Positions 45,688 to 48,498 of a DNA stretch of 64,000 bases are shown piece by piece. Below the pieces are notes generated by a model, which saw only the letters and a list, made by a program, of their open reading frames with translations, had not been told where the DNA came from and searched no databases. A program made the position numbers and the translations under genes. Positions within the stretch are counted from its first letter, which is position 1; the number at the start of each line of letters is the position of its first letter. This stretch comes from Oscillospiraceae bacterium (GTDB taxonomy: Bacteria; Bacillota; Clostridia; Oscillospirales; CAG-272), in contig SVQI01000002.1 of NCBI GenBank assembly GCA_015065455.1, positions 92,042 to 156,041 of the forward strand, in the 5' to 3' direction.

Positions 45688-48498
45688 ATGACTAAAACAA
45701 AAAGCACCAAGCGCGCACTGCTTATAAGCGCTCTCGCACTTCTTATGTGCGTATCGATGTTTGTAGGCTCAACATTTGCTTGGTTCACTGACAGCGTTAC
45801 CTCTACTAACAACAAAATAGTAGCAGGTAAACTTGACATTCAGTTATTCACGTTAACAAACGGCGGTTGGAGTGAAATCACAAACTCGTCCGCTCCCTTG
45901 TTTGACGAAAACACACTTTGGGAACCCGGTTTTACCTCTGCTAAAGTATTGAAGGTTAAAAACAACGGCAACCTCGCTCTCAAGTGGCAGGCTCAGTTCA
46001 TTTCTGACGTTGAGCTCTCTATTCTTGCAGACGTAATTGACGTATACGTTAAGGTTGGCGCTACTACTCTTCCTCAGGGTCGCGATCTTACAGGCTACAC
46101 AAAGGTTGGCACTATCCGCGAATTTGTAAACACCATTTCAACTACAACAGTTGGAACTCTTGAAGCAGAAGAAGAAGCAACTCTCGGTTTGATATTGAAG
46201 ATGCGCGAAGAAGCAGGCAACGATTACCAGGGTCTCAGCCTCGGTGCATTTGATATTCGTATCTTTGCTACACAGCTTGCTTTTGAAGATGACTCTTTCG
46301 GTTCTGACTACGATACAAACGCTCCCTTCGGAGCAACTGCATCTGCTACAATGACAGCAGGTCAGTCAACTGTACTTAACTTCTCTGCTTCTCCCTCTAC
46401 AGTATACAGCCAGACTAACATTGAAGTTCCCGCTGATACTTATACTGACAAGATCGTTGAGATGACAGTTAACGCTACAAACTCACTCTTCAACATCAGT
46501 GCTGACGGAGCTGTTGTAGGCTCACTCGACGTTACTTTGAAGGTTGACGGCGTAGAGGTAAGTGAAGAACTTGCTGACGGTAAGGTTTACACAGTTACAA
46601 CTTACATTTCCAAGGGACTTCAGAACGTTTCCGTAAGCTACACAGGTACTGACGGAAAAGATCAGCCCACATTCGTTTCTTACGATGCAGCTACAGGCGA
46701 GCTCGTATTCAAAACAAACCACTTCAGCGAATACGCTGTAACAGGTTCTGCTTTGGCTTACGATAAAACCACTGATACTGCTTTTGTACAGGTTGAAGAA
46801 ATTATCGAAAGCACAACAGCTGTAGTTCCCCCCGTTAACACAGAAATCTTTGCTGAAAAGGTTGAAGAAGCTGTAGATAACGGTACTATCAACGAAAACA
46901 CAATTGACAAGGATGAAATTTATCCTGTAAAAGTTGGTAGTGATTACTACACAACATTGGAAGCAGCTCTTGCCGGAGCAGATAATGGCACTGTTGTATT
47001 GTTGAAGGATATTACAATCGACGCCGACGACAATATCACAATTGCAAAGGATAAGACAGTTATTATCGACCTCAACGGAAAAACTCTTGCCGGTATCTCT
47101 GATGTTCAGGGTAACGCTATGATCACAAACAGAGGTACACTTACCATTAACGATACAACAAACACAGGTTCTATTGAATACACATTCGTAGGCGCGCCTG
47201 ATGCATCATACGGTAAAGGCAACTATACTATCTCTAACGTTGGTACACTTACACTCAACGGTGGTAGTATCATCAATAACACTGCAAAAATGTCTCATGC
47301 GTTCTATGCAATCGACAACAATTCCATAAACACAAGCGCCACATTGACAGTAAACAACGGTAAGATTCTTACTCCCAACAACCATTCTCTTCGCCAGATC
47401 GCAGGAAATGGAGTTAATACAATAACAATTAACGGCGGTCTTGTTGAAGGTGAAACACGTGCTATTTGGGTACAGCTTCCCGGCAGTAATACAGCTGTTG
47501 CTCCCGTTGTAAACCTTACAGTAAACGGCGGTGTTCTCTCAGGAGCAAAGGTTGATAGCACAGATAATAAGCTTGCTGTTTACTCATACAGCTACGGCAA
47601 CGATATGAAGAACGTTACTATCAACATCAGCGGCGGCGTATTCAACGGCGACGTTGCGTTGACAGGCGGTAAGAACAAGCAAAACATTGAAACAGTTAAC
47701 GTAACCGGCGGTACTTTCAACGGCAGATGGGGTGATCTCTATTCCTACGGCGATACAGCAAAGGCTGCAGCAACAATTACCGTTAAGGGCGGAACATTCT
47801 CTGACCTTGAAGTTTTGAATTACATGGGTACAGATGAATTTGCTGAAATCAAGCTAGCTAAAGACGTTGAACTTGAAAAAGGCGTTGTTATTAACTCAGG
47901 CGCTAAAGTTACACTTGATCTTAACGGACACAACATTGATGCAACATACACAGGTACCGAGCATTATGGCACTTTCACAATTAAAGAAGGCGCTGAACTG
48001 ACCGTTAATGGTACAGGCAACGTAACTACAAAAACTGCACTTACAACAAGCAACCGTTCTGTTGCAACATTTGCCAATGCAGGTAAGCTTACTATCAACG
48101 GCGGTAATTACGTTTTGAATGATGCTACATCTTCTGATTACACATGGATAATTGCTGCCATTATCGACAGCTATCATTACACAGGCGATTCTGTAGCTAC
48201 AATCAACGGCGGTACTTTCCAGGTTACCGGAAATGCAATTAACCTTTTCCGTAACAACTCTACAGGTCCTAATGCAACTTCTACGTTGAACATTTACGAT
48301 GGTACATTCAACAAGAATCCTGAAAAAAACACATATATTTGGAACCACCAGAGCTTTACAGGTGCTAAGGATTATATGAATTTCTATGGCGGTACATATA
48401 ACGGTATCGTATACGAAGACTATTATGGTCAAGACGATATCTATGTAAGCGATGCTGCTATTGCAGGCGGCTTAAAAGCATATTCTGGAAATTCCTGA
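45688..48498 (+). CDS. 936-aa secreted protein: SipW-signal TasA-like N-domain fused to a long GG(T/V)F-repeat (beta-helix-like) region
   Basis: Signal FVGSTFAWFTDSVTSTNN. The N-domain ends IFATQLAFEDD. The C-terminal about 500 aa has about 10 spaced (I/V)xGG(T/V/N)(F/Y) repeats such as INGGLVEG, VNGGVLSG, ISGGVFNG, VTGGTFNG, VKGGTFSD and INGGTFQV. Confidence 0.7.
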   Translation: MTKTKSTKRALLISALALLMCVSMFVGSTFAWFTDSVTSTNNKIVAGKLDIQLFTLTNGGWSEITNSSAPLFDENTLWEPGFTSAKVLKVKNNGNLALKWQAQFISDVELSILADVIDVYVKVGATTLPQGRDLTGYTKVGTIREFVNTISTTTVGTLEAEEEATLGLILKMREEAGNDYQGLSLGAFDIRIFATQLAFEDDSFGSDYDTNAPFGATASATMTAGQSTVLNFSASPSTVYSQTNIEVPADTYTDKIVEMTVNATNSLFNISADGAVVGSLDVTLKVDGVEVSEELADGKVYTVTTYISKGLQNVSVSYTGTDGKDQPTFVSYDAATGELVFKTNHFSEYAVTGSALAYDKTTDTAFVQVEEIIESTTAVVPPVNTEIFAEKVEEAVDNGTINENTIDKDEIYPVKVGSDYYTTLEAALAGADNGTVVLLKDITIDADDNITIAKDKTVIIDLNGKTLAGISDVQGNAMITNRGTLTINDTTNTGSIEYTFVGAPDASYGKGNYTISNVGTLTLNGGSIINNTAKMSHAFYAIDNNSINTSATLTVNNGKILTPNNHSLRQIAGNGVNTITINGGLVEGETRAIWVQLPGSNTAVAPVVNLTVNGGVLSGAKVDSTDNKLAVYSYSYGNDMKNVTINISGGVFNGDVALTGGKNKQNIETVNVTGGTFNGRWGDLYSYGDTAKAAATITVKGGTFSDLEVLNYMGTDEFAEIKLAKDVELEKGVVINSGAKVTLDLNGHNIDATYTGTEHYGTFTIKEGAELTVNGTGNVTTKTALTTSNRSVATFANAGKLTINGGNYVLNDATSSDYTWIIAAIIDSYHYTGDSVATINGGTFQVTGNAINLFRNNSTGPNATSTLNIYDGTFNKNPEKNTYIWNHQSFTGAKDYMNFYGGTYNGIVYEDYYGQDDIYVSDAAIAGGLKAYSGNS

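Follow-up and report, generated by a model that had tools for sequence, protein, structure and literature searches.

A protein of 936 amino acids (aa) that joins a TasA-like module to a large C-terminal head is encoded in a 64,000-nucleotide stretch of DNA from an Oscillospiraceae bacterium (contig SVQI01000002.1; this whole stretch is referred to below as the window). The gene occupies positions 45688-48498 of the forward strand, the strand of every feature below unless stated, where an open reading frame (ORF) starts with ATG and runs for 936 codons to a stop, and it sits in a co-directional cluster of genes that extends from 43230 to 51682. A sequence-only reading of the window had described the product as a chimera, in which a complete TasA-type module of about 215 aa is followed by an extension of about 700 aa with beta-helix-like repeats. 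The gene is a real ORF that combines three folds, i.e., a TasA-like jelly roll, a beta-sandwich in which a beta-turn holds an invariant HFS motif, and a right-handed parallel beta-helix, and it lies in a conserved operon with an exchangeable cargo slot.

The chance that a sequencing or assembly error joined two ORFs into this gene is negligible. The identical, full-length protein was called on the 24 contigs read, which come from separate assemblies (29 blocks of the collection contain it according to the index), and the same neighbouring genes stand beside it in two JGI samples; a fusion of this kind recurs in 139 related genomic ORFs with 400 aa or more, and the structural model is confident and continuous across the domain junctions. 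No support for such an error was found, and the sole homopolymer-length difference seen is in a signal peptidase gene outside the 936-aa gene. Because of the identical protein on 24 contigs and the hundreds of homologous fusions, we exclude a fusion artefact, of which the sequence-only reading had likewise seen no sign.

Domain architecture of the 936-aa protein

Residues 1-31 (45688-45780) form a SipW-type signal peptide; the NCBIfam model TIGR04088 (cognate_SipW) matches residues 16-49 with 28.7 bits against a cut-off of 19, and signal cleavage is predicted to occur after ...GSTFA, a position placed by comparison with TasA, in which the corresponding cut falls between ...GTWA and AFND. Residues 32-47 (WFTDSVTSTNNKIVAG; 45781-45828) constitute a putative N-terminal donor strand, in which D35, V37, S39, N42, and G47 are invariant in an alignment of homologs (alignment A1) and N42 and I44 are at least 80% conserved across 140 cargo N-domains. 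In the full-length AlphaFold2 monomer model (mean predicted local distance difference test [pLDDT] score, 75; approximately 65-87 in the N-domain), residues 29-44 score below 50, as expected for a strand that folds only inside a partner. A donor-strand role for this segment is suggested by analogy with TasA and BsaA, both of which form fibres by donor-strand complementation (PMC9674648, PMC11580942).

The jelly-roll core that follows (residues 48-198; 45829-46281) ends in a conserved ATQ strand. When the full model was compared with 350,542 chains by Foldseek, the TasA fibre 8aur_A ranked first (E 9.5e-4, probability 1.0), with a fold alignment of 236 columns against the 233-residue target; the archaeal bundling pilus 7ueg_A was matched with a probability of 0.99, and the Sulfolobus thread 7pnb_A (E 0.34) was among the fold matches listed, both of these being donor-strand filaments of archaea. 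An hhalign comparison with a sequence taken as that of Bacillus subtilis TasA aligned residues 8-104 only, with TasA residues 4-86 (probability 83.8, E 7.9e-6). With a SipW-type signal above its cut-off and a TasA fibre as the top PDB fold match, the first 215 or so residues are TasA-like, as the sequence-only reading had proposed, and the prospect that the N-domain might lack the TasA fold was not borne out by the jelly-roll match to 8aur_A. The core is succeeded by a conserved acidic junction (residues 199-215, FEDDSFGSDYDTNAPFG; 46282-46332) with pLDDT below 50. In alignment A1, E200, D202, F204, and D209 of this junction do not vary, and conservation is 90% or more for S203 and Y208; E200 and D202 are also at least 80% conserved in 140 cargo ORFs. 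The motif E-x-D-S-F-G-x-x-Y-D is common to cargo proteins with unrelated heads, though the junction is predicted to be disordered, and a cargo-less 217-aa paralog in the same operon (49893-50546) stops at ATQKNPN, without the acidic junction motif. Calcium binding, strand mimicry, and a processing signal are possible roles of this junction.

With regard to the 700-aa extension, the proposal of a beta-helix holds for the C-terminal 515 or so residues, but residues 216-360 (46333-46767) are a separate, conserved beta-sandwich with the HFS motif, followed by a three-helix linker. The sandwich (pLDDT mostly 80-95), the C-terminal end of which reads ...LVFKTNHFSEYAVTG, resembles the MAIN, GAIN-B, and Nup98-C domains in its model and profile matches. 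MAIN domains are microbial GAIN-like domains described in May 2026; in B. subtilis YfkN, a cut between F and S of HFS was established by mutagenesis and Edman degradation, and the fragments remain associated until parted by force or denaturant (bioRxiv 10.64898/2026.05.12.724683). In the 936-aa protein, the motif (H345-F346-S347; 46720-46728) lies in a turn (residues 344-348) between strands 338-343 and 349-354, as assigned by DSSP on the model with pLDDT above 90, and by analogy autocleavage would take place between F346 and S347. The HFS motif is present in 31 homologs. When 18 sequences with 16-67% identity were aligned (alignment A4), just four columns proved invariant, and H and S account for two of them. 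When the A4 profile was searched against the PDB, autoproteolytic domains of Nup98/Nup145 were matched across the HF/S site (7fik_G, E 0.007; also 7f60_C, 2q5x_A, and 5hb6_A; E range, 0.007-0.45), with alignments that span about 25-40 residues around the cleavage site and so extend beyond HFS alone; matches to the Pfam S59 autopeptidase family were obtained for 7 of the 18 A4 members, all under the gathering score. The ZU5-ZU5-UPA entry 4d8o was among the Foldseek matches of the full model (probability 0.84). BLASTP also found the middle domain to be homologous (E 2e-5) to the pre-anchor HLS domain of P0135, which, together with P0140, carries the first beta-helix module described below in the canonical order of signal, beta-helix, '...FETTHLSTYGIVG', NPNTGD, transmembrane stretch, and basic tail.

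On the basis of the motif, its position, the Nup98-type profile matches, and the architecture, residues 216-360 are a probable self-cleaving joint of the MAIN/GAIN type. The linker (residues 361-420; 46768-46947) comprises one short strand and three helices (369-374, 382-397, and 408-411 by DSSP on the model; pLDDT above 90). The presence of the HFS domain between the TasA part and the beta-helices shifts the likely mechanism from a covalently attached passenger to a head that would be held non-covalently and could be released.

The head consists of two beta-helix modules, module 1 (residues 421-705; 46948-47802) and module 2 (residues 706-936; 47803-48495). A separate model of residues 415-936, built from an alignment of 46 sequences, reached a pLDDT of 94.2 (mostly 82-98 in module 2) and a predicted template modelling (pTM) score of 0.92, and nearly all of the 50 fold matches listed for it are right-handed beta-helix proteins, including PL6 alginate lyases, pertactin, Hap, Ag43, UpaB, PL3 lyases, and phage tailspikes; a viral structure library also gave tailspike-like matches. 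Structure prediction and fold searches, run on the full-length protein and on residues 415-936, thus bear out the claim that the last 500 or so residues form a right-handed parallel beta-helix. The best PDB fold match of the head was the two-domain PL6 alginate lyase 7dmk_A (E 1.8e-4), with low template modelling (TM) scores throughout (0.2-0.4 overall and 0.2-0.26 to lyases), and its only sequence-level PDB match was to the beta-solenoid adhesin SRRP (5nxk_A; E 0.0043), in which it was confined to 37 residues of the N-terminal cap. Neither module matched a Pfam family even at E up to 10, and NCBIfam gave no match, so that no enzyme class can be assigned.

All sequence strings on which the sequence-only reading had relied (FAWFTDS, LWEPGFTSAKVLKVKNNG, IFATQLAFEDD, and ten GG-type motifs) are present in the translation. 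The pattern [IVLF]x[GD]G[TVNLSAI][FYVILS] recovers exactly the ten motif copies that had been listed, at residues 523, 581, 612, 647, 672, 699, 803, 839, 869, and 899, compared to a mean of 0.52 (standard deviation, 0.72; maximum, 5) in 2000 shuffles of residues 420-936. The copies form two blocks (residues 523-699 and 803-899) with within-block spacings of 25-58 residues, and the blocks correspond to the two tandem modules, which are weakly similar to each other by BLASTP (E 0.002); a tandem-repeat search of the DNA found none across the operon.

Module 1 is a strongly conserved, unannotated domain family. It has 711 homologs, most of them without a TasA domain, which include Glug/M26_N proteins and, in Bacteroidota, lipoproteins with a length near 590 aa, and at least 85% conservation is seen in 127 unique sequences for D543, R569, R591, W594, Q596, YSYSYGN (632-638), D655, K664, E668, and Y687. 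Module 2 is much less widespread, with only 10 homologs that cover at least 70% of it. At 45-50% identity, module 1 occurs in Bacteroidota-type lipoproteins (P0147, P0188, P0133, and P0164, and positions 8001-9776 of locus L082), which implies module exchange between phyla; some of the Bacteroidota carriers bear DUF6562, and one is labelled Alistipes. P0147 is encoded by a stand-alone gene between housekeeping genes, a context that offers no functional clue. An autotransporter-type passenger was considered and rejected, as there is no beta-barrel translocator, the protein ends with module 2, and the host is Gram-positive; because of the missing translocator and the clostridial origin of the relatives, the likeness to autotransporter passengers is one of fold only.

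A conserved operon with a variable cargo slot

A scan with one genome per species found at least 576 relatives, and 79 loci were fetched. All 79 loci are from metagenome-assembled genomes (MAGs) of animal or human gut origin, and nearly all carry the label of a Clostridia lineage (Acutalibacteraceae, Oscillospiraceae, Faecousia, and others), with one contig in a Bacteroidaceae MAG. The gene order was the same in nine of the nine loci inspected: sipW, a small transmembrane protein gene, an optional cargo gene, a further sipW, a gene for a 225-aa TasA-like paralog, cargo genes, a 189-aa paralog, an anchor, a 217-aa paralog, and a gene of the 362-aa type. These nine loci have from one to five cargo genes in variable slots, with one to three of them between the 225-aa and 189-aa paralogs, and fusions beside sipW, for which the sequence-only reading had suggested a check in other genomes, are thus found. 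In at least 25 of the 79 loci, which belong to differing uncultured gut and rumen Clostridia, there are homologs of the short paralogs and of the anchor. The 936-aa gene fills a variable cargo slot of an operon that is conserved in uncultured gut and rumen Clostridia and that includes two sipW genes, four short paralogs, and a protein with a sorting signal of the sortase type.

Among 170 ORFs from species-representative genomes with a best match to the 936-aa N-domain, 139 have at least 400 aa (median, 614; maximum, 2,106), while each of the other operon paralog classes is short with a tight length range. The view that TasA-family proteins are single-domain therefore fails for this N-domain subfamily. 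Likewise, 245 of the 248 proteins with a TasA-type signal that were gathered here exceed 280 aa. Clustering at 50% leaves 6,248 representatives of the N-domain family; of the best 150, nearly all are long, and the domain is always N-terminal. Cargo paralogs within one locus share an N-domain with a median identity of 56%, and their C-regions have diverged (identity x coverage, 0.11), a combination that fits a common docking module with exchangeable heads. Precomputed Pfam labels on the heads of homologs are PF13229, PF13306, PF05342, PF07581, PF03629, and PF20585, and some homologs are already named 'TasA family protein' by NCBI.

In the window, the cluster starts with a sipW-like signal peptidase gene (43230-43994; 254 aa with a long charged C-terminal tail), the product of which scores 67.9 bits against the TIGR02228 cut-off of 51.85, matches the SipW model NF046067 with E 2e-21 (below the cut-off of that model), and has homologs in 48 of the 79 loci. 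A small membrane protein of 74 aa follows (44021-44245), to which a Pfam scan assigned no family and which has homologs in the same position in 23 related loci. The second sipW-like gene, sipW2 (44343-44879; 178 aa), encodes a Pfam Peptidase_S26 protein that scores 106.3 bits against the same TIGR02228 cut-off. At the 3' end of sipW2 (44858-44867), a poly-C tract has ten residues in the window and in locus L001 and nine in locus L002 (9171-9179); the C9 tract shifts the last-codon frame, so that the product grows from 178 to 201 aa and ends 18 nt before the next gene. This difference is either a real homopolymer polymorphism between populations or a homopolymer sequencing error.

The 225-aa TasA/BsaA-like paralog (44968-45645) has a TIGR04088 match of 29.7 bits and a match to TIGR04090 (BsaA family) with E 2.8e-4, below the cut-off. 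Across 24 orthologs, N37, F39, E58, and K83 show a conservation of 80% or more, and the Asn-to-Glu spacing of 21 equals that between N35 and E56 in Clostridium perfringens BsaA (PMC11580942). The conserved Asn, Glu, and Lys and the BsaA-like spacing suggest a covalently locked stalk, and from its sequence this paralog is a candidate for a stalk subunit with an intermolecular isopeptide 'exchange and lock'. A small hairpin lies 3' of its gene, near 45659-45671. Directly 3' of the 936-aa gene, an intergenic region (48499-48612) with two strong stem-loops has a folding energy of -46.4 kcal/mol (z = -7.6; none of 200 shuffles folds as well) and no U-tract after it; these stem-loops may serve in attenuation, which would set the ratio of upstream to downstream subunits, or in mRNA stabilisation. 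A scan for promoters and terminators gave counts no higher than those in shuffled sequence.

The 189-aa TasA-like paralog (48615-49184) has a signal that ends in ...STLAYYST, weak matches to PF12389 and TIGR04090, and highly conserved orthologs in 27 loci. Next to it is the candidate anchor (49198-49878; 226 aa), with an ordinary Sec signal in place of a SipW-type one, a TasA-like body, PPQTG, a hydrophobic stretch, and an RKK tail; BLASTP matches it to residues 80-201 of the 936-aa protein (E 9e-5). In most of the 25 orthologs, the C-terminus is built of a P-x-TG(D/E)-type motif (PPQTG, SPNTG, PPKTG, PPATG, and variants), a membrane-spanning segment, and a basic tail, and the motif matches the PPKTG type that Clostridioides difficile SrtB uses (PMC5118464, PMC4155245). 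The cargo-less 217-aa protein (49893-50546; signal ...SLAWFKD) is the closest paralog of the 936-aa N-domain by BLASTP (27% identity over 191 aa, E 2e-17); 27 related ORFs with a median length of 217 aa have it as their best match and occupy the same operon position in the loci inspected. Finally, the last protein of the operon (50594-51682; 362 aa) consists of a cytoplasmic N-terminal segment, a transmembrane stretch that ends in AYAYFSS, a small domain, and a Thr/Pro-rich tail. It has no Pfam match, and its orthologs in 31 loci show a conserved N-terminus and a variable tail; the conserved cytoplasmic segment precedes a SipW-type signal. The tail holds three imperfect Thr/Pro-rich repeats (TTVP.P.TT.P.TTS...SPETTGN.TPETT.EP), varies in length among species, and contains no DNA repeat by Tandem Repeats Finder.

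Outside the operon, a convergent gene on the reverse strand (51785-53032) encodes a polytopic membrane protein with a weak match to GT87-type glycosyltransferases; none of the 79 related loci contains a counterpart, and the protein is therefore probably unrelated to the fibre system. A 760-aa membrane protein of the ComEC/Competence family is encoded downstream (54153-56435), with a small helix-turn-helix protein before it. The only Rfam matches in the window are a tetrahydrofolate (THF) riboswitch (60807-60906, reverse strand; 86.6 bits, E 1e-18) and one tRNA gene (20478-20548, reverse strand).

Proposed mechanism and rival explanations

Several known systems resemble parts of this locus. The 936-aa protein shares with TasA, which is encoded by tapA-sipW-tasA in B. 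subtilis (8AUR), a SipW-type signal, an adjacent sipW, a jelly-roll fold, an N-terminal strand suited to donation, and the landmarks PGx..K..x.NNG.LAxK and N.YQG...ATQ. However, TasA has only one domain (261 aa) and assembles into homopolymers for which TapA is the nucleator, whereas the 936-aa protein has 720 further residues and is encoded alongside five other paralogs and two SipW genes; nothing TapA-like was recognised in the operon, although no search aimed at TapA was made. In the BsaA/BsaB/BsaC system of C. perfringens, a clostridial sipW operon likewise encodes several paralogs of the TasA family together with a partner of the LPXTG type (PMC7395162, PMC11580942); heteropolymers and LPXTG partners have been proposed for it, and a C-terminal BsaA fusion was displayed at the surface (PMC11580942). 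The 225-aa neighbour has the V/A-x-N-x-F donor motif as well as a conserved Glu and a conserved Lys, in resemblance to the N35-E56-K74 isopeptide triad of BsaA; of this triad, only the donor-strand Asn (N42) was recognised in the 936-aa protein, with no equivalent Glu assigned. In contrast to the 936-aa head, BsaC, with its von Willebrand A domain, is a separate polypeptide that is not fused to a TasA domain.

MAIN proteins such as YfkN have, as does the 936-aa protein, HFS in a beta-turn of a GAIN-B/ZU5/Nup98-C-like sandwich, with a surface anchor on one side of it and a large cargo for adhesion or enzymatic activity on the other, and pectin-lyase-like cargos are common in the MAIN data set (bioRxiv 10.64898/2026.05.12.724683). 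While the anchor of these proteins is a C-terminal sortase or SLH anchor, the presumed anchoring module of the 936-aa protein is the N-terminal TasA domain and its cargo is C-terminal, so that the released piece would be a C-terminal fragment. The FimH and PapG tip adhesins of chaperone-usher pili and the proposed tip protein TafC of haloarchaeal Tafi pili combine a fibre-plugging pilin-like domain with a binding domain, and anchor and tip roles have been proposed for different paralogs of the one Tafi locus (PMC12337348). The adhesin domain of FimH is N-terminal and covalently attached, and a chaperone and an usher are required for assembly; in the 936-aa protein, by comparison, the head is C-terminal and probably non-covalent, and the subunits would assemble in a Gram-positive envelope without a chaperone. 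A surface right-handed parallel beta-helix is shared with the autotransporter passengers pertactin, Hap, and Ag43 and with SRRP of Limosilactobacillus reuteri (5NXK), but the 936-aa protein has neither a beta-barrel translocator nor a serine-rich-repeat stalk.

We propose that the 936-aa protein is a fibre-incorporated subunit with a beta-helix head that is held non-covalently and released under force, a proposal that we consider about evenly balanced between right and wrong. The signal peptide of the exported protein would be removed by one of the two SipW peptidases encoded in the operon, and the TasA-like domain (residues 32-198) would join a heteropolymeric fibre by donor-strand complementation, the fibre being built of the short TasA/BsaA-like paralogs of the operon and presumably held on the cell by the PPQTG protein. 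Residues 216-360 would cut themselves at F346/S347, with both fragments staying together through their shared beta-sheet, so that a C-terminal fragment of 590 residues (the last strand, the helical linker, and the two beta-helices) would be displayed on the fibre non-covalently, either as a cap or along its length. The head may then bind, and possibly degrade, a ligand, probably a glycan, and mechanical load could pull the head off, freeing either the cell or the head.

A number of observations weigh against this proposal. With regard to the N-domain, the TM-score to TasA is low (0.38 on target), and Pfam PF12389 (Peptidase_M73), which is carried by most homologs and passes its threshold in P0125 and P0136, was just missed by the 936-aa protein (21.0 bits against a gathering threshold of 22.5, residues 15-53 only). 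The A1 family profile found no TasA entry among PDB sequences, and phmmer with the full 936-aa protein found no match there; as these searches of the PDB returned nothing, it is by fold comparison alone that the N-domain is tied to TasA. With regard to the joint, its membership of the MAIN family is supported indirectly: BLASTP against the first 93 or so codons of validated MAIN domains (preprint Table S8), which end before the catalytic site, found no significant similarity, all Pfam S59 matches lie below the gathering score, and the Nup98 E-values are those quoted above. The order of signal, TasA domain, MAIN-like domain, and cargo is also the reverse of that reported for virtually all MAIN proteins, i.e., signal, cargo, MAIN, and C-terminal anchor (bioRxiv 10.64898/2026.05.12.724683). 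The MAIN-like motif was found in only 6 of the 139 related genomic cargo ORFs; the joint is thus not general to the class, and the 936-aa protein represents a subclass. Finally, a search of the window and of the flanks of the 79 related loci revealed no sortase-like ORF with TLxTC, and the signal of the anchor would hence depend on a sortase encoded elsewhere, or the anchor would stay in the membrane.

Three other explanations of the protein have to be weighed. That the cargo is carried covalently, with HFS as a merely structural element of an Ig-like spacer that is never cleaved, was implicit in the sequence-only reading, and we find it rather doubtful, although the sub-threshold family matches of the middle domain and an orientation opposite to that of characterised MAIN proteins favour it, as does the fact that most cargo-bearing relatives have no middle domain and display clearly works without one. 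A purely structural motif is less readily reconciled with the invariance of H and S amid variable neighbours in sequences with as little as 16% identity, with the location of the motif in the turn before the last strand, which is its position in GAIN, MAIN, and Nup98, and with the reach of the Nup98 alignment (about 25-40 residues) around the site. In addition, Table S3 of the MAIN preprint includes, in a single row, a protein with the same architecture as the 936-aa protein, and the structure-based parser used there labels the equivalent domain ZU5, its label for the GAIN fold (bioRxiv 10.64898/2026.05.12.724683).

Alternatively, the protein could be a secreted or singly docked monomeric enzyme or adhesin, with a TasA-like N-domain that acts only as a tag for SipW-dependent export and attachment and that plugs once into the anchor or a fibre end, or has no partner. 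Polymerisation of the 936-aa N-domain is indeed something that we infer, the models being of monomers only, and this counts against incorporation into a fibre. No Glu is conserved in the strands after the donor strand of the cargo class, unlike the catalytic-Glu position of the 225-aa paralog, so that cargo domains may be unable to lock an incoming strand, and operons in which one to five cargo genes accompany a constant set of short paralogs fit docking as well as co-polymerisation. We nevertheless regard a monomer as unlikely, given that the N-domain spans the TasA core in full and matches the subunit in its fibre form, that its closest paralog is a conserved cargo-less subunit (217 aa) of the same operon, and that the invariant putative donor strand is kept; single docking at a fibre end, in turn, would be a special case of the fibre-incorporated subunit, namely a tip subunit. 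A further alternative concerns the function of the cargo and is compatible with a releasable head on a fibre: the head may be a glycan-active lyase or hydrolase that, once released, acts remotely on plant, mucin, or matrix polysaccharide, which we consider possible while leaning against it. The PL6 and PL3 lyases among the best PDB fold matches, the charged residues conserved in module 1 (D543, R569, R591, D655, K664, and E668), and the enrichment of glycoside hydrolases among MAIN-linked cargos (bioRxiv 10.64898/2026.05.12.724683) speak for an enzyme; set against these are the lack of any Pfam or NCBIfam enzyme family, the low TM-scores to lyases, the similar scores of adhesins with the same fold (pertactin, Hap, Ag43, and UpaB), and the identity of the lone sequence-level PDB match, an SRRP adhesin of a Gram-positive gut bacterium.

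Implications for TasA-superfamily fibres

TasA-superfamily fibres are now treated as biofilm scaffolds of small single-domain subunits. The 936-aa locus belongs to a very large unstudied subfamily, with thousands of cluster representatives that come almost entirely from uncultured gut and rumen Clostridia, and the TasA domain in this subfamily looks like a docking module for large, rapidly exchanged functional heads. The individual parts are of known kinds; what is new is their combination, in particular a reversed MAIN-type joint on a polymerising module. No discussion of cargo-bearing TasA proteins was found in the TasA literature searched or in the MAIN preprint, in the text of which TasA and SipW are absent (bioRxiv 10.64898/2026.05.12.724683).

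In its widest form, our hypothesis is that gut and rumen Oscillospirales may use a chaperone-free, wall-anchored donor-strand fibre of TasA/BsaA paralogs as a plug-in display scaffold, for which cargo subunits would combine a shared TasA docking domain with diverse heads (beta-helices, leucine-rich repeats, and Glug/M26-like and esterase-like domains), and in which a subclass that includes the 936-aa protein would have a MAIN/GAIN-type joint in reverse topology and thus mechanically releasable adhesins or enzymes; we put this forward tentatively, as a conjecture more apt to fall than to stand in all its parts. If it is true, TasA fibres would serve dominant gut anaerobes in the further role of platforms that display adhesins or enzymes, and the MAIN joint would also work in the opposite orientation, on a polymer as well as on a wall anchor. 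Such fibres would provide a natural blueprint for engineered TasA fibres with releasable cargo, and they would represent a Gram-positive counterpart of tip-adhesin pili that is combined with the shedding logic of adhesion G protein-coupled receptors.

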